DNA of 64,000 bases, taken from assembly GCF_017348835.2 (NCBI RefSeq), contig NZ_CP071375.1; one strand, given 5' to 3'. The notes beneath the pieces are model-generated. The model ran no database searches and was not told the DNA's origin. It worked only from the letters and a program-made list of their open reading frames with translations. Positions 43,578 to 55,976 of this stretch are shown piece after piece. Source of the DNA: Escherichia coli. GTDB taxonomy: Bacteria; Pseudomonadota; Gammaproteobacteria; Enterobacterales; Enterobacteriaceae. Made by a program: the position numbers and the translations under genes. Each line of letters starts with the position of its first letter. The stretch's first letter is position 1.

Positions 43578-44939
43578 TCAGAAGAACAGTGACGGATCGC
43601 CCGCCCGTTTGGTCAGGCGACCGTTTGCCATAATGCCCATGCTTTCCAGCCAGCGTTCAAACTCCGGTGACGGGCGCAGGTTGAGTAACTGACGCACAGT
43701 GGCGGTATCGTGGAATGCGGTGGTCTGGTAATTGAGCATGATGTCATCACCCAGCGGCATCCCCATGATGTAGTTGCAGCCTGCGGTGGCGAGCAGGATC
43801 ATCAGGTTTTCGTTGAGGTTCTGGTCAGCGTCAGCGTGGTTGGTGTAACAGCAGTCACAGCCCATAGAGATGCCGCTCAGCTTGCCCATAAAGTGATCTT
43901 CTAAGCCCGCACGAATAATCTGGCGGTCATTGTAGAGATACTCCGGCCCAATAAAGCCGACCACGGTGTTGACGATAAACGGATCGTAATGACGCGCCAG
44001 CCCGTAGTTACGCGCTTCCATGGTCACCTGGTCTGCGCCGTAGTTGGCACCCGCCGACAGCGCCGAACCTTGCCCGGTTTCGAAGTAGAGGCAGTTTTCC
44101 CCGGCGATACGGTTGAACTCTGCACCCACTGCGCGCGCTTCGTCGAGCATCGCCAGTTCCACGCCAAACTCTTTCAGCCCTTTTTCACTGCCACAGATAC
44201 TCTGGAAAATCAGCCCGCCTGGTGCGCCACGACGAATCGCTTCGATCTGGGTGGTGACGTGCGCCAGTACGCAGCCCTGAGTTGGGATGTTGAATTTGTC
44301 GATCACGCCATAGATGGTGTCCAGCACGCGGCTTAAGTTTTCCACGTCGTCAGTTACCGGGTTGACGCCGATCACCGCATCGCCCACCCCGAAGGAAAGC
44401 CCTTCGTAGATTTGCGCGGCGATACTTTGCACGTCGTCACGGGTGTCATTTGGCTGCAAACGGGCGCTAAAGGTGCCCGGAATACCGATGGTGGTATTGG
44501 CCTTTTTGATTACCGGCATTTTCTTCGCGCCGTAGATCAGGTCCGCGTTGGAGCAAATCTTCGCTACCGCCGCGACCACTTCCGAGGTCAGCCCTTTGCG
44601 GGTAAAGGCAATGTCGTCCACGCTGGTTTCATCGCTCAGCACATACTCACGCAGTTCGCTGATGCTCCAGTTTTTAATCTGGTTGTAGGCCGTTTCGTTA
44701 ACATCGTCCTGAATCAGCCGCGTCACGCAGTCATCTTCATAGGCAATCACCGGATTATTGCGGATGTCCGCTACGGTCATTTCCGACAACACCTGCTTTG
44801 CTGCCACGCGCTCCTGTGAGCTTGCCGCTGCAACGCCCGCCAGCACATCCCCCGAACGCAGTTCGTTGGCTTTAGCCAGCACCTCTTTTACATCCTTAAA
44901 CTGATATACATTGCCGAACAATGTGGTCTTTAGTTTCAT
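43578..44939 (-). CDS. eutB: ethanolamine ammonia-lyase large subunit
   Basis: ORF trimmed to MKLKTTLFGNVYQFKDVKEV... start (ATG complement 44937-44939), 453 aa. Confidence 0.93.
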   Translation of the reverse strand: MKLKTTLFGNVYQFKDVKEVLAKANELRSGDVLAGVAAASSQERVAAKQVLSEMTVADIRNNPVIAYEDDCVTRLIQDDVNETAYNQIKNWSISELREYVLSDETSVDDIAFTRKGLTSEVVAAVAKICSNADLIYGAKKMPVIKKANTTIGIPGTFSARLQPNDTRDDVQSIAAQIYEGLSFGVGDAVIGVNPVTDDVENLSRVLDTIYGVIDKFNIPTQGCVLAHVTTQIEAIRRGAPGGLIFQSICGSEKGLKEFGVELAMLDEARAVGAEFNRIAGENCLYFETGQGSALSAGANYGADQVTMEARNYGLARHYDPFIVNTVVGFIGPEYLYNDRQIIRAGLEDHFMGKLSGISMGCDCCYTNHADADQNLNENLMILLATAGCNYIMGMPLGDDIMLNYQTTAFHDTATVRQLLNLRPSPEFERWLESMGIMANGRLTKRAGDPSLFF

Positions 44940-45127
44940 AAGTCGTTCCCTCAGGAAGAAGTGATGAGTGACATTTTTCACAGCCTTCAAACAATTCTAT
45001 TTCATCGTTAACCCTTGTCCTGTAAGGTAATTACCTTAGTACGCCCGCTATTCATCCTGCCGAACGCAACCGAACGCGCCGGATACATGAGCGGGGTTAT
45101 CGAGTCGTTAGATCGAGGTATCCGGTT

Positions 45128-46333
45128 TTGAGCAAGACACCACTGACAGCAAAGGCCATAGAGGCCGCACAACCGCAGGACAAGCCCTATAAACTCACCG
45201 ATTCACAGACACCTGGCCTGTTTTTGCTGGTCCATCCCAACGGCAGCAAATACTGGCGATTCCGGTATTGGATAGACAAGAAGGAGCGGTTACAGGCTAT
45301 TGGGGTGTATCCGCTGATTAGCCTCAAGGAAGCCCGCAAACGCGCCACAGAGAGCCGTTTACTGATAGCCCAGGGAATTGACCCAATGGATTTGGCACGC
45401 AAGGAGAAAGCCATTGATGCTCTTAATGCTATCGCCAGTTTTAAAGCTGTAGCAGAAGACTGGATGGCTACCAAGGTGAGCGGATGGAGTGAGAGCTATA
45501 CAAAGCAGGTCAGATCGGCACTAGAGAAAGATGTTTACCCCGTGCTAGGTAAGCGGTCGATAGTGGATATAACGGCCCGTGACGTGCTGGCGTTACTACA
45601 GAAAAAGGAGCGCACCGCACCGGAACAAGCCAGGAAATTACGCCAGCGTATCGGGGAGATCTTCAAATTTGCCGTTATCACTGAACTGGTTAACCGGAAT
45701 CCGGTTGCAGATCTGGATACGGCACTGAAAGCCAGACGCCCAGGCCATAACGCGTGGATACCGATTAATGAAATTCCGGCCTTCTACAAAGCCCTTGAGA
45801 GAGCTGGGAGCGTTCAGATTCAGACGGCAATACTTTTGCTCATCCTCACAGCTTTGAGGACGGCAGAATTGCGCCTGATGCGCTGGGAATGGGTAGATCT
45901 GCAATCGGCAACAATCACATTGCCCGCTGAAGTCATGAAGGCCCGCCGACCGCATGTTGTCCCGCTATCCCGGCAGGCGGTCGAGCTATTACAGGACCAG
46001 TTTACCCGCAGCGGATACAGTGCTTTCGTCTTTCCTGGCCGATTCATGGACAAGCCACTTTCAGCCAGTGCCATCCTTAAAGCCCTGGAGCGTATCGGAT
46101 ACAAGTCGATAGCCACAGGCCACGGCTGGCGGACCACCTTTTCAACGGCGCTTAATGAGTCCGGCAGGTACTCACCAGACTGGATCGAAATCCAACTGGC
46201 CCACGTTCCGAAAGGCGTGCGCGGTGTTTATAACCAGGCGGCCTACCTGAAGCAACGACGGGCCATGATGCAGGATTATAGCGACTGTATTGATTCAATA
46301 CTGGCTGGTGACGGTAATCCACTTGAACCGTGA
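45128..46333 (+). CDS. intZ: P4-type tyrosine integrase
   Basis: 401-aa ORF (TTG start in the ORF track); N-terminal arm-binding-type domain (DKPYKLTDSQTPGLFLLVHPNGSKYWRFRYW), catalytic region with HGWR and terminal ...GVYNQAAYLKQRRAMMQ tyrosine motif. The symbol is assigned by position only. Confidence 0.85.
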   Translation: MSKTPLTAKAIEAAQPQDKPYKLTDSQTPGLFLLVHPNGSKYWRFRYWIDKKERLQAIGVYPLISLKEARKRATESRLLIAQGIDPMDLARKEKAIDALNAIASFKAVAEDWMATKVSGWSESYTKQVRSALEKDVYPVLGKRSIVDITARDVLALLQKKERTAPEQARKLRQRIGEIFKFAVITELVNRNPVADLDTALKARRPGHNAWIPINEIPAFYKALERAGSVQIQTAILLLILTALRTAELRLMRWEWVDLQSATITLPAEVMKARRPHVVPLSRQAVELLQDQFTRSGYSAFVFPGRFMDKPLSASAILKALERIGYKSIATGHGWRTTFSTALNESGRYSPDWIEIQLAHVPKGVRGVYNQAAYLKQRRAMMQDYSDCIDSILAGDGNPLEP

Positions 46334-46884
46334 ACTATAAGGCCGGGTTTATACTCAATATCGACGGTTGAAGCGCTCAAAAAACAACCGTGACAACCGT
46401 CACAAATATGCAATGTCAATGATCTGAATCAATAAATTGCCAATTCTTCGTTTCCACTTTCGAATGAAAGCAAGATGCAGAAAAATAAATCACCATGAAA
46501 TCATGTACTTATTAATTTTGACCAAATGGTCCAAAATATCCTCGGTGAATCCATGCTTGCCACAGCCAGATGATTAATATTTAACCCATGACTTTCGAAT
46601 GAAAGTAAATTGATAAAAAAGTCAGTGTACACTAACTAAATCGAATATTTTTTGCGCTATGTTTGAATGATAATTGAGCAAAACTTTCGCAAGGTGTGAC
46701 GATGTGAGTAATTAATTTTAACTCTACAATAAACCCATCCCGACAGGGATGGTACCTGGAGCGGAGCGAGAGGGACCATCCCCCTGTTTTTAGTCTTTTG
46801 AAGTTAGTTTTTTAAGGGATTAAATAATTTTGCCTCAAATGAGACCACACCATACAAGGCCAAAAACAATCAGTATTGCGTGGA

Positions 46885-47400
46885 TCAGGCTGGTTTTTTA
46901 ACTATATACCCCGTATGCCAAGGATTCTGATCGCGCGGCATCGGGTCCGCCTTGATAGACTCATAAAACTTATCAGCCATCTCAGCCACAAACTGTACAG
47001 AGGATTCGAACTCAGCGTTTTTGTGTGCGGGAGGAAACCAGAAGTCTAACACGCCAGCATTTCTATTTTTACATACAGCGTATATAAGATAAGCATCAGA
47101 TGTAGGGGTAACTTTTTCGAAACCACCGGGACCATAACGACCAGTAGACCAGTCATCCCAGCATTGTTCTGTCCCGCTATAGCCGTACTGATTGGTATAA
47201 AGACCAATATTTACATGGACTTTACGTAAGTGGATAGGATATACACACGGGGGTTTATGGAAAAGAGTATCCTTTCCAAAATCAGGATGATGTCCATATC
47301 TCCAATGATAAATAAACGAATCCTTAAAGCTCTTTAATTCATCGTTTGTTTTAAACTTATTATCACTGTAGACCTTACCAATAAATTCATTCTGGACCAT
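46885..47400 (-). CDS. YafO-like toxin-family protein (putative toxin of a two-gene module)
   Basis: 171-aa ORF from ATG (complement 47398-47400); motifs DFGKDTLF, PIHLRKVHVNIG, SDAYLIYAVCK, FWFPPAHKNAE and VAEMADKF line up with YafO motifs as I recall them (FGRDALY, HIHL, EAHLVYCQG, KPEPHKLA, MAEAF). Confidence 0.5.
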   Translation of the reverse strand: MVQNEFIGKVYSDNKFKTNDELKSFKDSFIYHWRYGHHPDFGKDTLFHKPPCVYPIHLRKVHVNIGLYTNQYGYSGTEQCWDDWSTGRYGPGGFEKVTPTSDAYLIYAVCKNRNAGVLDFWFPPAHKNAEFESSVQFVAEMADKFYESIKADPMPRDQNPWHTGYIVKKPA

Positions 47401-47734
47401 CAAAGCTTACACTCTTTAAGCGTTCTTCTCGTGAATCGAATAAATCTTTTGATAAATCACACGCTTGTGTGAACGTCATTTTTTTTACTCGTGGTACAGC
47501 CATAGGCGAGGCCGCATTCATCACTTTGTTTTCTTCGTGATCGAGAGTAGCAGTGTAGCGAAACATGACACTTTTACCGCGCACCAACTGGTATCCTAGT
47601 CGATACGCTAACGCGTCAAGATGCGTCAGACGATTTGTTTTACGCAAGCCAGTCATAGCTTTTGGCTTACGAGTGCGCACAGAAAGGGATTTCCCTTCTC
47701 GCTTAGTCGCAAACAAAGTAACTATTTTTGACAT
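47387..47734 (-). CDS. small basic protein, putative partner/antitoxin of the downstream toxin-like gene
   Basis: 115-aa ORF from ATG (complement 47732-47734) with GGAGAT RBS; stop lies 10 bp before the downstream gene start; Lys/Arg-rich N-terminus. Confidence 0.45.
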   Translation of the reverse strand: MSKIVTLFATKREGKSLSVRTRKPKAMTGLRKTNRLTHLDALAYRLGYQLVRGKSVMFRYTATLDHEENKVMNAASPMAVPRVKKMTFTQACDLSKDLFDSREERLKSVSFDGPE

Positions 47735-48706
47735 GGTATCTCCTGACATCAATCTGCTAAGGCCATTGTGCCTTGTTTGAATAGTAAACTATTCGCCCAA
47801 TCTACACCAGTGATTTTCTTGACGCCAATAGTAAAGGCAGCATTGCCCACCACAGGCAGACAATGAGACTTCAGATAGCGCACCTTCTATCGCGCACGCG
47901 CTCAATAAAACCAACGACACCGCCATCCTGCCTGACCGATGTTTTTAACCAGCGTATACAGAGAAACAGACAACAGCATGAAATCAGCGTATATCCAGGT
48001 GCAGACGGCACTATCACACAACGCACAGCAGGCTGAGGTGAACACTCAAGCAACTTTATCCCCGCCACCGACCACCGCAAACTATCATGACCGTGCCAAA
48101 TTCAAAAGGAATGGCCCATATAACGCGATGAACACACATAAGCGCTACACTTGCTTACCTGAAAACTTCACAGCGTCACAGCGCGTTTTAGACACGTTAA
48201 AATTAATGAGATTTCATTAAATTTTCACCAGACACCGGAACAAGCCTATAAATCAAAAATGAATTACCGACATGCGCCGCTGGCGTTCACAGGAAGAATC
48301 AATAACTTAGGCCAATGGCGAAAGTTAAACAAAATCAAGAACTTGCAGAAATGCAGGATGAAGCAGCCGATGTGCCCCGTTGGATTTTACCAGAAGAATC
48401 AACAAGTTAGACTCGGTGATTTCACCGACTCCTGCCGGACTACTGACCAGATCGAACCATTCCCCAAATTTGGGGAGAGCAAACCACACGCAGATCCTGC
48501 CAGGCTATTTCATCCCACCGCATCACGTATTTGCACACTTCCCCGCTGACGTGCTCATTTTGATAACGAGTTACCCGCTAGCCCTTGCCACATCACCATT
48601 TGTCGCGCTTTGACTAAATTAGCGACGTGCCTGTTATAGCGATACGCTAGTTATGCAGAAAGCGCGACATATCCAGCAACCATGCACCCTACAGAGGAAT
48701 TGAATC

Positions 48707-49159
48707 ATGCGAGACATAGACTGGTCAGCTATCCCTTTCGATGATTTACCGCCCTGGCATCTGGACTGGGACGTAGACCAACGCGAAAACGCGACATATC
48801 CAGCAACCACCAGCATTACAGCGATGCGCCCCGTAAAGCCTAAGAAATACCAGGCAACCGACCTGATAGCTCACCTCAAAGCTATTGGCGGCGTATTTAC
48901 CGGAAGCAAAGACACGCTTGCACATGAAGTATGGCCCCGGAAGACGCCAGCGGGTCGAACCGTTTTACGCTTACTGACCGAACTGTCAGACAACGGCGAC
49001 GCTGTAGTGATTAACCGTGGTCGTTGTGGCGTGGAAGTTATTCTGACGCCGAAGAACAGGGCACAGACGCCTGAATTAAGCGCACCCAAGCAAATGCATA
49101 GCCAAAAATTAAGTCCAGCAGAACGCGTTATATCGCTTTTAAATGGCATCGGATTTTAA
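48707..49159 (+). CDS. hypothetical island protein
   Basis: 150-aa ORF with GAGGA RBS 8 nt upstream of ATG; no recognisable family. Confidence 0.5.
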   Translation: MRDIDWSAIPFDDLPPWHLDWDVDQRENATYPATTSITAMRPVKPKKYQATDLIAHLKAIGGVFTGSKDTLAHEVWPRKTPAGRTVLRLLTELSDNGDAVVINRGRCGVEVILTPKNRAQTPELSAPKQMHSQKLSPAERVISLLNGIGF

Positions 49160-49185
49160 TTAATTTTGATGTGGTAATTGCAGGC

Positions 49186-49212
49186 AAAAAAATCCCGCCG
49201 GAGAAAGCGGGG
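49186..49212 (-). terminator. rho-independent terminator oriented for minus-strand transcripts
   Basis: Minus strand reads CCCCGCtttctccgGCGGGattttttt (on plus strand the A-run precedes the hairpin). Confidence 0.55.
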
Positions 49213-49446
49213 AAGTGAAATCAATCGTTGTAGTTATAGATCACATTTTGGAGTTGAGGATGGCTAATCCTCGCTAATATTATCGCGCCGTTATGTGATG
49301 GGCGCAATTATTTCTTACTAATTAAAAGTTTTGTAAATATTACAGAATATCCCTTTTCACTATATGGTAAAAGATGTGAAACAGGGACATGAGGAATATA
49401 ATATTAAGTATCAACAGTAATGTTGGTCTTTAATTTCATTCAGGGC

Positions 49447-49489
49447 GCGGTGAGGGTTTTCTCCATATTTTTCCTCACCGCTACTTTTT
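49447..49489 (+). promoter_or_regulatory. terminator/attenuator-like hairpin in the alpA leader
   Basis: GCGGTGAGG-17 nt loop-CCTCACCGC followed by tacttttt, immediately upstream of the alpA RBS. Confidence 0.45.
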
Positions 49490-49501
49490 CGAGGTGAGAA
49501 C

Positions 49502-49693
49502 ATGAATGATAGCGAATTAATGACGGTGAACGAGGTAGCCGCTTTATTCGGCGTTACCCGTCGGACAATATTCCGGTGGATGAACAAGATTAAAGGCTGG
49601 CCCGTCCCGGTCAGTCCGATTGGCTCAAGAATTAAGTTTATCCGATCTGAGATTTTGGAATTCTATAAAAACAAAGGCGCTCGCCACCAATGA
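49502..49693 (+). CDS. alpA: AlpA-family phage/island transcriptional regulator (excision control)
   Basis: 63-aa ORF MTVNEVAALFGVTRRTIFRWMNKIKGWPVPVSPIGSRIKFIRSEILEF: typical AlpA HTH signature; RBS GAGGTGAG. Confidence 0.8.
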   Translation: MNDSELMTVNEVAALFGVTRRTIFRWMNKIKGWPVPVSPIGSRIKFIRSEILEFYKNKGARHQ

Positions 49694-49832
49694 AAACAGC
49701 TACTGAGATTATCAAATAACCTATTGATTTAAAAAGCTAGCTACCGCAATTTCTGAAGGAATAGGCAGCATGAAAATCAAAGCAAACACAATTAAAGAAA
49801 TAACATCAATCAAAGTAAAAGGAGCAGATGCC

Positions 49833-50096
49833 ATGCATTCATTAGATAGTTATTTTCAGCGCACGACAGCCCCTAAATCAGCCGCCCAGGAACGCCGTGA
49901 GGAATTCCAGGAAAAAGTGATGCGTTCTGCTGATTATATTGCGGACAAGTTCGCGGAAACGGTTCGGCCACTTGTTGATGAAGTAGCTGATAAACTTCAG
50001 TCTGAAATGCCGGAAGACATGGAAGGCACTGCAAAGGCGCGACTCCTTTTTGAATTAAGTCGTCGTTTCGGCGTGTCAATAAGCACTTTTAAATAA
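49833..50096 (+). CDS. hypothetical small acidic protein
   Basis: 87-aa ORF from ATG 49833 with AAAGGAG RBS 8 nt upstream. Confidence 0.5.
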   Translation: MHSLDSYFQRTTAPKSAAQERREEFQEKVMRSADYIADKFAETVRPLVDEVADKLQSEMPEDMEGTAKARLLFELSRRFGVSISTFK

Positions 50097-50113
50097 TCGG
50101 AGGAGGAAAGACA

Positions 50114-50656
50114 ATGGACGCATTTGATGTACTGACAAACAAAGGCGATGAACTGGTAGCACAGCGTGATAAAACCGCCAACGAAGGGGAACGCGCACTG
50201 TTAAATAAGCAGATTAAAGCGATCCGTATGGCCCAGTTTAAATTAATCAGCAATGAAGTTATCGAAAAAATTAAACCGCAGATCCCACAAATCGTTGCTG
50301 ACGCTATTAAAGCCGCCGGACTGGAGAAACGCATTGCCGGGCTGAAAACGAACGCAGAGAAAATGGAGATGCACAAACAGAGCGGTGCTCCGACTCCGGA
50401 TGAGTACTTCTCACCGGATGCTGAGTTTATGGCGCAGGTTGAGGAACGTCTGGGTAGCTGTCTCACCGAGGAACAGTGTCGCTATTTTGATGGAGTGGAT
50501 AGTTCGGCAGGTATTGACCTGAACTCGTATTTCGGTCGTGAAATTGAGCATTTTGATGCCGCCCCGTCTATGCCGGAGCCAGAACCAGAAATGGCCGCCG
50601 ATCCTGAAGCTGAGCAACGGAAACGCGTATTCAATGCGATAGGGATTCGGTACTGA
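50114..50656 (+). CDS. hypothetical protein (phage-associated)
   Basis: 180-aa ORF with strong GGAGGAGG RBS; acidic C-terminus. Confidence 0.55.
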   Translation: MDAFDVLTNKGDELVAQRDKTANEGERALLNKQIKAIRMAQFKLISNEVIEKIKPQIPQIVADAIKAAGLEKRIAGLKTNAEKMEMHKQSGAPTPDEYFSPDAEFMAQVEERLGSCLTEEQCRYFDGVDSSAGIDLNSYFGREIEHFDAAPSMPEPEPEMAADPEAEQRKRVFNAIGIRY

Positions 50657-50664
50657 TCGGATAA

Positions 50665-50688
50665 AAGAAAGCCGGGAATTACCCCGGC
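50665..50688 (-). terminator. hairpin terminator, T-tract on the minus strand
   Basis: GCCGGGaattacCCCGGC preceded on plus strand by ataaaagaaa (minus strand: hairpin then tttcttttat). Confidence 0.45.
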
Positions 50689-50707
50689 TGACTTAACAAT
50701 GTGACCA

Positions 50708-51082
50708 ATGAACAAATCGGACAAGACAAACAGGATAAGCAGTCTCGAAACAATGTTCGGGAACTATATTAGCACAAGTCCGGAGAAAATCATCATGTTG
50801 GCACTACGCATCATGCAGGGCATCGCTAAGACCCTCGCAGAACATGTCTTAGACCTGAAACATTCGCCACTGAGCAAACAGGCCATGAAGCGCCAAACGC
50901 TTCGTCTGTGGGCTGAATATTCGCTTGGAACTATCAATAAAATCATCGACATGAAATCGGGGCCGAGCAACCAGAGCGCGGAGGAAATGGAGTTCATCAG
51001 GCGTTTAATTCTCATTCGCAGAGACATTCATAGCCAGTTACACAGCGTGGGAATCGATATTAATGATGGGACGGGCGATTAA
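50708..51082 (+). CDS. hypothetical protein
   Basis: 124-aa ORF; weak RBS. Confidence 0.45.
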   Translation: MNKSDKTNRISSLETMFGNYISTSPEKIIMLALRIMQGIAKTLAEHVLDLKHSPLSKQAMKRQTLRLWAEYSLGTINKIIDMKSGPSNQSAEEMEFIRRLILIRRDIHSQLHSVGIDINDGTGD

Positions 51083-51120
51083 TTTTCGGACAAGTACTAT
51101 GCGCGCGCGAGGAGCTGAAC

Positions 51121-51351
51121 ATGAAGCAAGATATTGCAGACAGGCTGGAGATACTCGAAGGCCAGCGGGCAGAAGCGAAACAACTACGTAAGCAGGCCAG
51201 AAGAGCGCACAGGAACTACGAAGCAGAATCACTGACCGCTTTCATCAACTTCACAAACCGTTGCATCCTGGAGTGTTACAGGGAGGATGCAGAAAACTGG
51301 CTGGATTCATTGCCAGAACAGACTCTGCATGAACTGAACGGCGACCAGTAA
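51121..51351 (+). CDS. hypothetical small protein
   Basis: 76-aa ORF with GAGGAG RBS 6 nt upstream. Confidence 0.5.
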   Translation: MKQDIADRLEILEGQRAEAKQLRKQARRAHRNYEAESLTAFINFTNRCILECYREDAENWLDSLPEQTLHELNGDQ

Positions 51352-51638
51352 ATAAATCCAGTACGTTTCCCGCAGTGCGCATAACGTACATTATGTGAAA
51401 AACGATATGGATATATATCAGTCTGACTTCAATGAAGAAAACGGACTTCCAGCATCAACCACAAAGAAGTATGGCTAATGCAGCTTTATAAGCCATTGAT
51501 TCTATTAAACGATATTTTTTGTGATTGGTTGAAGCAAACCAAAACACGATGCCACTGAAGCGTTAATAAACTGTTTCAATGTGAAATTATCAGAGTAAAG
51601 AACAATTTGGAGGGTCCGCAAACGCGGATAACAATATC

Positions 51639-53819
51639 ATGAGTGGAAATCTCGGGACCATATACTACGAGGTCGATGCCCGCACTGGGAAACTTCTTAT
51701 CGCGCAACAGCAGGCGGAAGAGGCGTTCGATCGCATTGAACGAGGAGCGCGGAAGGCTGATAGCGGCGTCAAAAAGTTAAATACGCAGATGACTAAAACA
51801 TCAGCCGCAGTCAAAACCAACCTTTCCCCGGCAATCCGTAACGCATCATACCAGATCGCAGACCTTGCCACTCAATTGCAGATGGGCGGTAATGCGCTTC
51901 AGGCGTTCGCTGTGCAGGGTGCGCAGTTATTAGCTGGCTTTGGCACGATGGGCGCGGTAGCTGGCGCGGTGCTGGCTATCGCTGGCGCTATGGGTGGAAG
52001 CCTGGCACAAGGCGCTGATAGTGCAGCCGGATCGGTTGAGTATCTGGACAAGGCGATCACCAAACTGAACGAGGTCATAGCTGTAAATGAACAGGGCGTG
52101 ACGGTGATGAGTGATAGTTACGCCAGACTTTCTAAGGTTAACGCTGAAGTAGCGAAACAGATGCGGAACATGGCTGAAATTCAGGCAATTGCAGCACTGC
52201 GTGACCTGAAAGAACAGGCAAGCCAGGCACAGGGGGAAATGTCGTCATTCTGGCGCAGCTTGCAGGGTGGTAAAGCTGACGCAGCAGCAGCAGCACAGGC
52301 ACTTGATGATCTTGGAATCACAACCAACGACTACAAAGAGGCGATAGCCATACTGAACGCCAATCAGCCGGATACACAGGCGCAAATGGCAACGCTAGCT
52401 AAGTCCGTGATGTACATAGGCGAGGAATACAACCTGACAAACCAGCAAGCCTACGAGTTCATCCGAGCACTAAATAGGGCCGCGACAACGAGAACGCCGG
52501 AAGCCATGCAGGAACTATCGGGCTTCATGCAGGTATTGCTACAGGACACCGAAAACGGTAACGAGGCATTCCGTGAACTGGCTATCAAATTCGTTGATGC
52601 ACAAACCAAAGGCGCAATGCTGGAAGACCAACTAAACCGACTGAAAGGCGCTATCAGTGACGCAGCCACAGAAGCCAGAAACGCCAATTTTACCACTATG
52701 CTCAACACCGTCGCCGCACGCCTGGCAGCCATTGAGCAAGGTTGGGAGGCAGGCGTTAGGATGCAGATGAAAGCCCAGGGCTACACTGAAGAGCAGATCG
52801 ATGAATATGTGAACATGGAAACGGCGTACCGTGATGCAAAAGCCGCTTTGGACGAGAAGAATAAGGCCGACCGTGAAGCTATTGCGCTATCCAAACGCCA
52901 GGCCGCAGAAGCAGCCCGCAAGGCAAAACAGGAAGAAGCTGAAGCACAACGCAAGGCCAAACAGTTAGCCGCGCAGAAGGAGCAGGCAGGACGCTTTACG
53001 CAGCAAGTAATGACGGAATACCTGACGACCGTAGATCCGGCAACAGGCAAGGCGTTTAACCCTGCCGCACAAGTAGAAATGCAGGAGCAGCAGAAGAAAG
53101 CGGCGCTGGATAAATACAGACAGTTGGGCGTCCTGGATGAACAGCAGTACCAGAACACGCTAACCGCCATCCAGAAAACCGCGTCAATGCGCCGCCAGCA
53201 AATCATCAAAGACGAGGCCGACACGTTATTCAACAATCAGCAACAGTTGATCGGCACATTTGGCGATTTCTTCGGTGAACTGTCTGGAGTCATAGCAGAC
53301 GGTGCAGGTGAGCAAAACGCGGCATATCAAGCGCTATTTGCTGTGCAGAAGGGTTTTGTATTGGCATCAGCAGCTTTAAGCCTTCAGAAAGCGCTTGCTG
53401 AGGCAAACGCCTTGCCTTTCCCGGCTAATCTTCCGGCCTATGCGCAAGCTATGTCAGCAGGCACGCAGATCATTTCAGCTATTCGTGGAATAGCTTTCGG
53501 TGGCGGACGCTACAACGGCGGCGCGGTTGGTGCTGGCAACCTGTACCGCGTGGGTGAACACGGTAAGCCTGAGATATTCAAGGCGAACAATGGCAGCCAG
53601 TACATGATCCCAGGTGATAACGGTCGCGTGATAAGTAATCGTGACATTGGCGGCGGTGGCGGCGTAACAATCAACAGCCCGATCACCATTAACACTACGA
53701 ATGGCTTCAGTGATGAAGACTCAAGGCGTCTTGAGGAAGCGATGAAGCGCGTAGCTATGGGCGTTTGCAGGCAGGAGTCAACCAGACCGGGAGGAATGTT
53801 AGCCCCGCGCCGTCGTTAA
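51639..53819 (+). CDS. phage tail tape-measure-like protein
   Basis: 726-aa ORF: glycine/alanine-rich hydrophobic segment (LLAGFGTMGAVAGAVLAIAGAMGGSLAQGADSAAG), long A/Q/E/K-rich coiled-coil middle, C-terminal G-rich region with YRVGEHGKPE motif. Confidence 0.7.
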   Translation: MSGNLGTIYYEVDARTGKLLIAQQQAEEAFDRIERGARKADSGVKKLNTQMTKTSAAVKTNLSPAIRNASYQIADLATQLQMGGNALQAFAVQGAQLLAGFGTMGAVAGAVLAIAGAMGGSLAQGADSAAGSVEYLDKAITKLNEVIAVNEQGVTVMSDSYARLSKVNAEVAKQMRNMAEIQAIAALRDLKEQASQAQGEMSSFWRSLQGGKADAAAAAQALDDLGITTNDYKEAIAILNANQPDTQAQMATLAKSVMYIGEEYNLTNQQAYEFIRALNRAATTRTPEAMQELSGFMQVLLQDTENGNEAFRELAIKFVDAQTKGAMLEDQLNRLKGAISDAATEARNANFTTMLNTVAARLAAIEQGWEAGVRMQMKAQGYTEEQIDEYVNMETAYRDAKAALDEKNKADREAIALSKRQAAEAARKAKQEEAEAQRKAKQLAAQKEQAGRFTQQVMTEYLTTVDPATGKAFNPAAQVEMQEQQKKAALDKYRQLGVLDEQQYQNTLTAIQKTASMRRQQIIKDEADTLFNNQQQLIGTFGDFFGELSGVIADGAGEQNAAYQALFAVQKGFVLASAALSLQKALAEANALPFPANLPAYAQAMSAGTQIISAIRGIAFGGGRYNGGAVGAGNLYRVGEHGKPEIFKANNGSQYMIPGDNGRVISNRDIGGGGGVTINSPITINTTNGFSDEDSRRLEEAMKRVAMGVCRQESTRPGGMLAPRRR

Positions 53820-54317
53820 CCAAATCCCACGCCAGGGGGATAGACTGGCGGCCTTTCAATTCCGTTGAAACGACGGAATCAAACACCCCGATTCAGGGTA
53901 TTTAAACGTCGCGTTTCACGACATTTATCTAAGTCATTGATTTATATTGTAACTCATAATTGAGTTGCGCCGACCATCCCGCCACAAACGCTCCTACGCA
54001 AAAATTCCCTCACAATTACCCTGCCAATTTTCCAGATTTCACGTATACGCGCCTATATCCCCGCCACCGGATACACGCCCGCTTATACCGGATACTTTTA
54101 TGCCATCATTATTAAATCCATTAATAATCATCAAACCATAATTAGCACAACTTATAATCGAACAAAAAACACACAACATTGATAATGATTTTTTCTGGTT
54201 ATACTTATCTAAAAAAGTGGTATGGGAAGTAACTTATTGTTTTGTAATTACAAATTTATTGCGTGGTCAGATGAACAGACTTGCGCACCTCCCGAAAAAC
54301 ACGCGAAAATCGAAGTG

Positions 54318-54427
54318 TTCTTTCTTTTTTTGTTTTTTATTTTTTTATTTTCTCTTTTTCTTCTCTTTCCGGTTCTCTTCTTTTTCTGGTTTTGGTTTTT
54401 TCCTTTTTTATTTTTATTCTTTCTTCA
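54318..54427. repeat. polypyrimidine (T/C) low-complexity tract
   Basis: ~110 bp almost exclusively T and C on the plus strand (tctttctttttttgttttttatttttttattttctc...). Confidence 0.9.
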
Positions 54428-54572
54428 GGGTTGTGATCAAACACACCAAAACATTTTCGCCACAAAAGCGTTAATTTCATCCTGCCAGACCATTCACTTT
54501 CACCGGATACACAGCCGGATATAATCCCGCTAACACCCAGCCACCCAGCATCACGCCTGATAACTACCGTAT

Positions 54573-55976
54573 TCAGGAAGGAAATGCGAGTGATTTCACC
54601 GTCACCGGCACAACCGATCCGCCAAAAAGAGGCGTACCAATGTCGATATAGTCCCCCGCGCGGACAATCACTTCGTCAATGACTGCCAACGGGAGTTGTT
54701 GTAGCTGTGGGCGCAACAACATGCCCAGAGCTTTACCAAAGTCCTGCCCGGCCACCACCAGCAGGGGATGCGGATTCGGAAAACGCGCGACGAAATCGAC
54801 CAACGCGTTGATGACCGTCAGTACCGCGGCGTAACGCACAGGCAGCGAGGCGGGAAGCGCCAGCACGTACGCGTCAGTTTTGGGATCAAGATCCAGCTGA
54901 ATCAGCGCCTGTTGCCAGGCACTCACCAGATCCGTTTCATCAATCGGGATCGCCACCGGCAAATTGCGCAGCGGCAGTTGTACGCCCTCCAGCCAGATTG
55001 TGCTGCCAGAGAGCGAAAGGGTATGTGCACCCGCGCCAATCACCGTGGCGCGTACGGTTTGCGCCGGAAACTGCACGTTCATCTCACGCAGGCGCGGATG
55101 GTCATGCAGCGCCGTTGCCAGAAGCGGGCCAATATCGGCAAAACAGAACGGGTCGGCGGGCTGGTGGCGATAACATTCGCCCACGCCGCCAGAAAGCGTA
55201 ATGATTTCGGGCGTAACACCTGCGGGCAGCAAACCGGTTTGCATTAATGCCTGCGCGAGCGGCGAAAGCGTTCCGTCAATCACTTCGACAATCAGCTCTG
55301 CCATCCGCCAGGTAACCTGCACCAGCTGCGCGCCGGTCAGCGAACGGGCGTCGGTGCCTGCGCCGAAGCACTCATCCACAATCATCTGCCCCGGTTTATG
55401 AGCGTAAACCACGCGCCCCTGGCTGTCGGTTTCCAGCAGGCGACCACCGACGTTGAGGCAGGCAGTGCCGCTGATTTTTCCGGCATCGAACAGGGCGTAG
55501 TTCGCGGTGCCACCGCCGATGTCGATATTCAGTACCCGACACAGCCGTTGTTCAGAAAGGGTTTGCGCCCCGGCACCGTGACCGGCGATCACGGATTCGA
55601 GGTGCGGCCCGGCGCTGGCGACGACAAAATCGCCCAGCGACTGAGAGAGCGCCATCACCGCCGGGCGAGCATTGCGGGTTTTCGCGCTTTCACCGGTGAT
55701 GATGATGGCACCAGAATCAACGCTTTCCGGCGCAATGCCCGCAGCCTGATATTGCTCTAAAATCAGCGATTTCAGTTCCGCTTCTTTTAAACCACCCTGT
55801 TTATCGACAGGGGTAAAGAACACCGGGCTTTGCCAGCTAATTTCGCGTTTGATGAATTCGTAGCGCGGCACCTGCGACACCGCCGCACGGTTAACCAGTT
55901 CCAGGTGGGAGAAAATCACCTGGGTGGTGGTGGTGCCGATATCGATACCGACGCTCAGTAGCTGGCGAGTGTTCAC
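54573..55976 (-). CDS. eutA: ethanolamine ammonia-lyase reactivating factor
   Basis: 467-aa ORF ending ...VTVKSLAFPS; operon context. Confidence 0.9.
   Translation of the reverse strand: MNTRQLLSVGIDIGTTTTQVIFSHLELVNRAAVSQVPRYEFIKREISWQSPVFFTPVDKQGGLKEAELKSLILEQYQAAGIAPESVDSGAIIITGESAKTRNARPAVMALSQSLGDFVVASAGPHLESVIAGHGAGAQTLSEQRLCRVLNIDIGGGTANYALFDAGKISGTACLNVGGRLLETDSQGRVVYAHKPGQMIVDECFGAGTDARSLTGAQLVQVTWRMAELIVEVIDGTLSPLAQALMQTGLLPAGVTPEIITLSGGVGECYRHQPADPFCFADIGPLLATALHDHPRLREMNVQFPAQTVRATVIGAGAHTLSLSGSTIWLEGVQLPLRNLPVAIPIDETDLVSAWQQALIQLDLDPKTDAYVLALPASLPVRYAAVLTVINALVDFVARFPNPHPLLVVAGQDFGKALGMLLRPQLQQLPLAVIDEVIVRAGDYIDIGTPLFGGSVVPVTVKSLAFPS

Follow-up and report, generated by a model that had tools for sequence, protein, structure and literature searches.

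The stretch of Escherichia coli DNA analysed here (64,000 nucleotides of contig NZ_CP071375.1, hereafter the window) carries an island between the ethanolamine-utilisation genes eutA and eutB, and within this island lie two hairpins, hairpin 1 and hairpin 2, whose U-tracts are on the minus strand. The island is a cryptic prophage of the CPZ-55 family, with a different mosaic from the CPZ-55 element of E. coli K-12. The immediate neighbours of both hairpins are all plus-strand genes (48707-49159, 49502-49693, 50114-50656 and 50795-51082). An initial annotation of the sequence had described the surrounding genes as plus-strand in general, which holds for these neighbours but not for the whole island, where a minus-strand YafO-family pair (46885-47752) is also found. 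That the eut operon is transcribed on the minus strand, through the island, is borne out by the annotation of strain PE164. This strain is 100% identical to the window over the region 48600-51400, and its Prokaryotic Genome Annotation Pipeline (PGAP) coordinates, converted to window positions, are those used here. On the evidence presented below, we think it probable that each hairpin forms the 3' end of its own short minus-strand non-coding RNA gene, with its own promoter. These small RNA (sRNA) genes most likely represent a conserved part of the CPZ-55-family islands that sit between eutA and eutB.

Anatomy and strand of the two hairpins

Read on the minus strand, hairpin 1 consists of CCCGCTTTCTCCGGCGGG followed by ATTTTTTTGC, with the T-run at 49193..49186 (positions 49211..49186 may also be written CCCGCUUUCUCCGGCGGG then AUUUUUUU). 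Its stem contains six pairs, five of them G-C, and has a minus-strand folding energy of -10.7 kcal/mol. Hairpin 2 consists of AGCCGGGGTAATTCCCGGCT followed by TTCTTTTATC (for 50689..50660, also AGCCGGGGUAAUUCCCGGCU then UUCUUUUAUC), and forms a stem of eight pairs, six of them G-C, capped by a tetraloop (-14.8 kcal/mol, z = -4.7, minus strand). On the plus strand the 3' flanks, GAAGTGAAAT and GACTTAACAA, lack a T-run at either hairpin, and one pair in each stem that is G-U on the minus strand becomes a C.A or A.C mismatch. As the U-tract and the wobble pair are both valid on the minus strand only, the two terminators are one-directional. They share with canonical Rho-independent terminators a G+C-rich stem, a short loop and an immediate U-tract, and this arrangement is present at both sites on the minus strand and absent on the plus strand. 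Unlike bidirectional terminators, neither hairpin combines a 5' A-tract with a 3' U-tract, and the U-tract that each does have is on one strand, oriented against all of the neighbouring genes.

A permissive terminator scan of the window returned 20 sites compared with 18.3 in shuffled sequence, giving no overall enrichment. Under stricter settings (at least 6 pairs, at least 5 G-C and at least 6 T in 8, with 30 dinucleotide shuffles as the control) seven sites were found against 1.07 +/- 1.03 in the shuffles. Both hairpins are among the seven, three of which are minus-strand sites within the island, and in the permissive scan both rank within the top three matches. The positions and minus-strand U-tracts reported in the initial annotation are therefore confirmed by anatomy, by the strict scan and by the conservation described below, and we have little doubt that both hairpins are real minus-strand Rho-independent terminators.

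Two predicted minus-strand RNA genes

A conserved minus-strand promoter precedes each hairpin at a fixed distance of around 90 nt, and for this reason the hairpins are interpreted as the ends of small transcription units of their own, the predicted sRNA-1 and sRNA-2 (Table 1). The promoters were recognised by consensus and by conservation, in 17 of 17 islands for sRNA-1 and in four lineages for sRNA-2. Both predicted RNAs are non-coding, the long open reading frames (ORFs) that overlap them being spurious; the sole reading frame of sRNA-1 is an AUG-UGA start-stop in its core (49238-49250).

For hairpin 1, the minus-strand sequences of 17 island variants were aligned. The sRNA-1 promoter, some 95 nt upstream of the hairpin, has an invariant TTG and GATAAT in all 17 islands and a spacer of exactly 17 nt whose letters vary. 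A promoter scan flagged it independently in two of the related island loci, L004 (5225..5196) and L005 (5231..5203). The position of the -10 element places the predicted start site at 49272. Folding of sRNA-1 gives -19.9 kcal/mol (z = -2.3), and when the variants were folded one by one (n = 17) their lengths ranged from 87 to 93 nt with the architecture unchanged: two helices, with an unpaired and almost invariant core between them (AAAAUGUGAUCU..AUAACUACAACGAU). Three of the six pairs in the 5' hairpin have changed on both sides between islands (G-C to A-U and A-U to G-C), and one U-G pair is valid on the minus strand only. The terminator 1 helix is 100% paired in 17/17 variants, with a compensatory C-G to A-U change (CCCGC/GCGGG to CCAGC/GCUGG) in four of them. 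Here swaps and indels fall only in the loop, and the run of 7-11 T is invariant across the 17 islands. Taken together, the two helices have 93.5% of cells paired, compared with 35-51% when the partners are slid, and include four pairs with double changes; their covariation score was reached by none of 500 shuffles. RNAalifold applied to a MAFFT alignment recovered the terminator helix only, with the 5' hairpin misaligned, and the 5' helix was tested through the named structure instead.

Of 5426 E. coli genomes, 184 carry the 143 nt around hairpin 1, each as a single copy. A covariance model of sRNA-1 hits each island once and has no hit in K-12 CPZ-55. Conservation of the sRNA-1 core, promoter and helices extends across mosaic islands with diverged or replaced flanks. 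No Rfam family was matched up to E = 1 on either strand of 42-58 kb. Searches with the invariant core in species-representative genomes returned chance matches only, those in Pantoea and Kosakonia lying in coding sequence.

Two other elements were considered at this site. A plus-strand promoter near hairpin 1 (TTGAGG-18-TATTAT, with the AT-rich -10 in common) was rejected, as the alignment shows no conservation of its -35 among the other islands. The core at 49238-49250 also contains a perfect CRP half-site, AAATGTGATCT. A full CRP site was rejected, since only one half-site is present (TGTGATCT) and the distance to any second half varies in the alignment.

The second predicted RNA, sRNA-2, folds at -28.6 kcal/mol. 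Near-consensus elements that align with its -10 lie upstream of the hairpin-2 analogues as cTGTATAAT (3150 and O178), TGgTATAAT (TOK-001) and TGaTATAAT (K-12). The counterpart predicted for K-12 is 54 nt long, and those of the 3150, O178 and TOK-001 lineages are 88-91 nt. Hairpin 2 itself is identical in L003, and the same gap holds minus-oriented terminators of different sequence in L004 (7271..7249), L005 (7205..7182) and the K-12 locus L002 (7783..7748). A 47%-identical homologue opens with the same MLALRI residues as the downstream plus-strand ORF, which confirms that this ORF starts at 50795, and the gap around sRNA-2 is on this basis non-coding. ORF 50764-51027, as a minus-strand protein gene that would end at hairpin 2, was considered and rejected, the plus frame being conserved in its protein sequence from the same start and the minus ORF having no PHROG match. 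More distant comparisons for hairpin 2 are impossible because the protein family of the 180-aa ORF that precedes it is confined to E. coli and Shigella.

Several observations weigh against the assignment of two dedicated RNA genes. The compared sequences are all from closely related E. coli, and the covariation counts for sRNA-1 are inflated by shared ancestry. Its 5' hairpin is an inverted repeat, and could be a protein operator at the DNA level. For sRNA-2 the -35 elements are weak, and the -10 TAATAT of the window also reads TATATT on the plus strand. Of 218 genomes, 207 are at least 99% identical across the hairpin 2 region, making within-lineage variation uninformative and limiting the support for this hairpin to four lineages. 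A sense transcript crossing both gaps is presumed from the arrangement of the genes, and the expression and regulatory role of both sRNAs are likewise predictions. Finally, the supplements searched, from a K-12 3'-end study, contain no entry for the analogous yffP-yffQ site.

Table 1. Coordinates of the predicted RNA elements, terminators and genes in and around the island
Feature	Position	Strand	Details
Predicted sRNA-1	49186..49272	-	~87 nt: 5' hairpin, single-stranded core (AAAAUGUGAUCU..AUAACUACAACGAU), terminator 1
Predicted sigma-70 promoter of sRNA-1	49279..49307	-	-35 TTGCGC (49307..49302), 17-nt spacer, -10 GATAAT (49284..49279)
5' hairpin of sRNA-1	49256..49272	-	GAGGAU-uagcc-AUCCUC; begins 6-7 nt past -10
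Terminator 1 (hairpin 1)	49186..49211	-	Stem-loop 49211..49194 (CCCGCU/GGCGGG, 6-nt loop), U7 tract 49193..49186
Predicted sRNA-2	50663..50759	-	~97 nt, without AUG; between ORFs 50114-50656 and 50795-51082 (both +)
Predicted extended -10 promoter of sRNA-2	50766..50774	-	TGcTAATAT (hexamer 50771..50766)
Terminator 2 (hairpin 2)	50660..50689	-	Stem-loop 50689..50670 (AGCCGGGG-UAAU-UCCCGGCU), U-rich tract UUCUUUUAUC
Third island minus-strand terminator	46735..46752	-	Strict scan; after YafO-family toxin operon; same hairpin in L004 3268..3251 (strain 3150)
eutL, eutC, eutB	eutB 43578-44939	-	PGAP of PE164
intZ	45128-46333	+	PGAP of PE164
YafO-family toxin and partner	46885-47752	-	PGAP of PE164
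Hypothetical ORF	48707-49159	+	PGAP of PE164
AlpA/excisionase-like helix-turn-helix gene (alpA-like)	49502-49693	+	PGAP of PE164
Hypothetical ORFs	49770-50096, 50114-50656 (180-aa ORF), 50795-51082, 51121-51351	+	
726-aa tape-measure protein	51639-53819	+	phrog_1538
eutA, eutH	eutA 54573-55976	-	PGAP of PE164

Proposed antisense control and the competing explanations

Each gap lies between plus-strand genes that no terminator on that strand separates, from which we infer that these genes are co-transcribed. The predicted sRNA-1 would be read in the direction leading away from the alpA-like early operon and its regulatory region; lying between the upstream ORF and the alpA control region, it would be complementary to a plus-strand transcript running from the upstream genes towards alpA. 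Similarly, sRNA-2 would be complementary to the intercistronic RNA linking the 180-aa ORF with the ORF that follows it, a position between the early genes and those that lead, in less decayed relatives, to the small terminase, head-tail connector and tape measure. At both junctions this may amount to cis-antisense control of the plus-strand island operon, acting on read-through between its segments. It could operate by RNA pairing and cleavage, as for lambda OOP, by the collision of convergent polymerases, or by both. Within the window the only outstanding complementarity of either sRNA is to the strand opposite its own locus, which is why we take cis-antisense control as the default mechanism; the search for trans targets covered the 64 kb of the window, where nothing stood out beyond these cis sites. 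The invariant unpaired core and long U-tail of sRNA-1 mean that trans action of the Hfq type would also be possible, and any residual eut read-through would be stopped at the hairpins as a side effect only. Our confidence in this mechanism is lower than in the existence of dedicated sRNA genes.

Both elements appear to be of a known kind, namely phage-type antisense small RNAs with intrinsic terminators, here unannotated and without an Rfam match. A parallel is offered by the well-known OOP RNA of lambda (a 77-nt antisense RNA of lambdoid phages), which is likewise short and non-coding, has its own promoter and an intrinsic terminator, is directed against an early phage operon and overlaps a gene junction. 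The similarity extends to size and to the layout of 5' hairpin, unpaired core and terminator. In contrast to OOP, the RNAs described here are two in number, are wholly intergenic rather than placed over a 3' coding end, have no sequence or Rfam similarity to it and are predictions from sequence. The Hfq-type sRNAs of E. coli prophages (DicF, and AgvB and AsxR of enterohaemorrhagic E. coli) also resemble sRNA-1, which is located in a prophage-like island, ends in a tail of 7-11 U, has an A/U-rich stretch before its terminator and contains an invariant unpaired core that is a possible seed. They differ in that sRNA-1 has no Rfam homology and no trans target was found for it in the 64-kb window. 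A bolder suggestion, which we consider doubtful, is that CPZ-55-family islands control their early operon by RNA rather than by a repressor protein, with the two antisense RNAs gating the alpA region and the junction of early and morphogenesis genes, and the sRNA-1 core (25-30 nt) also acting in trans on a host or helper-phage target. Control of this type would resemble the RNA-based immunity of satellite P4.

The initial annotation had put forward a different role, in which the hairpins are insulators that stop minus-strand eut transcription from crossing the island and so cut eutBCLK off from the eut promoter. We consider this unlikely. The geometry fits, in that the orientation is correct, no minus-strand intrinsic terminator lies between the end of eutA (54573) and hairpin 2, and hairpin 2 is thus the first that read-through from eutA would meet. 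The island family always has the same site and orientation (both are shared by every locus whose flanking genes were fetched), so that selection for insulation is conceivable. A dedicated insulator would, however, be expected at the border facing host transcription, and the eutA-proximal border (53820-54572) has no minus-strand terminator. The hairpins instead lie 3.9 and 5.4 kb inside the island, and an insulating role leaves the conserved promoters at fixed spacing upstream of them unexplained. Furthermore, read-through would first cross 3.9 kb of untranslated antisense RNA with more C than G. Such RNA is a Rho substrate and is expected to be terminated by Rho, which probably acts on eut read-through before hairpin 2 is reached. 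What stands of the proposal is therefore its geometry, and what does not is the dedicated role.

The related claim, that eutB-eutC-eutL-eutK are uncoupled from the upstream promoter, describes a consequence that is known for the sister island in K-12, where CPZ-55 blocks eutB induction and ethanolamine use (PMC7617246; PMC11334477). Induction of eutB is lost in the presence of that island, with eutS and eutR still induced (PMC7617246), and its scarless removal restores growth on ethanolamine as nitrogen source (PMC11334477). These experiments do not, however, locate where transcription stops. Attempts to dissect the known polarity of such insertions on eutBCLK should now consider three candidate causes, namely Rho acting in the antisense region, the terminators described here, or both.

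Two further explanations concern what the hairpins themselves do. Both begin just past plus-strand stop codons (35 and 14 nt), and their stems lose little stability on the plus strand (-9.4 and -14.5 kcal/mol), as would be the case if they served the ORFs ending at 49159 and 50656 as 3'-end stabilisers, processing sites or weak terminators. Against this, the plus strand has no T-run after either stem, the wobble pairs hold on the minus strand alone, and the invariant 5' run of 7-11 A would have no role. Moreover, the plus-strand genes continue downstream as an operon and a stop at these points would not be expected, and we regard a plus-strand function as very improbable. There is also little probability, in our view, that the minus-strand units are real but lack any regulatory role, being either relics of leftward transcripts of the ancestral phage or spurious promoters whose antisense noise is kept down by terminators placed behind them. 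The island is indeed a decayed and mosaic prophage, with a tape measure but no other tail genes and with pseudogenes in its relatives, and the window yielded no convincing trans target. Against this, the sRNA-1 core, promoter and helices persist where the flanks of the mosaic islands have diverged or been replaced, and the compensatory changes indicate continuing selection on structure. Dedicated antisense RNA genes, which the initial annotation had offered as its fallback in the form of antisense or sRNA transcripts ending at the hairpins, remain the explanation favoured by the comparative evidence and by the conserved promoters and their spacing.

If expressed, the two RNAs would be unannotated regulators in an island present in around 3-4% of complete E. 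coli genomes (184/5426). The ethanolamine-utilisation operon, within which the island lies, has relevance for gut colonisation and for pathogenesis. For annotation, terminators in prophage operons that seem misoriented can mark small antisense genes.

The island and its relatives

Sequence related to the region 48600-51400 is present in 240 of 5426 complete E. coli genomes. A search of a phage database found no DNA similar to 49064-51400, and the 180-aa ORF has no relatives in viral contigs. K-12 CPZ-55 (intZ, yffL to yffS) shares with the island its integration site, an intZ integrase of the same family and an array of plus-strand genes, and was considered as the identity of the island. It was rejected, as its gene content differs and neither hairpin sequence is present. 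K-12 CPZ-55 also has a minus-strand promoter-plus-terminator unit in its mid-island gap, between yffP and yffQ. This unit would yield an RNA of only ~54 nt, and no homologue of sRNA-1 accompanies it.

The yffP-yffQ spacer of K-12 (L002 7740-7829; genome ~2,563,239-2,563,328, minus strand) carries a strong extended -10 promoter, CTGAAA-16-TGaTATAAT, with a 14-bp terminator ~20 nt past it, and an unannotated RNA of ~54 nt is predicted there. The spacer, which corresponds to the gap of sRNA-2, is bound in vitro by RNA polymerase (RpoD) holoenzyme in an assay that is strandless (PMC3946193), and this counts in favour of the predicted RNA genes.

The tape-measure gene (51639-53819) is full-length and stands without any other tail genes, and genes for a small terminase, an HK97 gp10-like connector and an HNH endonuclease are added in the related islands. 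In appearance, the family consists of decayed HK97-type prophages or satellites that have become fixed at eutA/eutB.

Both ends of the island have features of their own. At the left end, a promoter-like sequence on the minus strand (AGGACA-16-TAGAAT, 44994-45021) faces outwards ~55 nt upstream of the eutB start, and is also found in three related islands (L003, L004 and L005). It could allow island-driven expression of eutBCLK, independent of the eut promoter. At the other end, inside the island beside eutA, lies a low-complexity tract of ~120 nt (54320-54440), rich in A and purines on the minus strand and in T on the plus strand, which is spanned by a 47-aa ORF in the PGAP annotation (54337-54480, minus).

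Two further sequences flank the sRNA-1 region. To the left of hairpin 1, the block 49064-49185 corresponds to the 3' end of ORF 48707-49159 and is conserved even where the upstream ORF is a pseudogene or is unannotated. Many of the differences between islands in this block alter the encoded amino acid, and it may have a role other than coding. On the plus strand, directly before the Shine-Dalgarno (SD) sequence and ATG of the alpA-like gene (49502), positions 49447-49490 form a hairpin, GCGGUGAGGG...CCCUCACCGC, with a 15-nt loop followed by a T-run. Its stem covaries between islands (GGCGGC.GUG/CACGCCGCC; GCGGCGGUUG/CAGCCGCCGC), and the SD sequence GGUGAG recurs in its 5' arm. This arrangement suggests a leader attenuator or antitermination target of the alpA-like gene.

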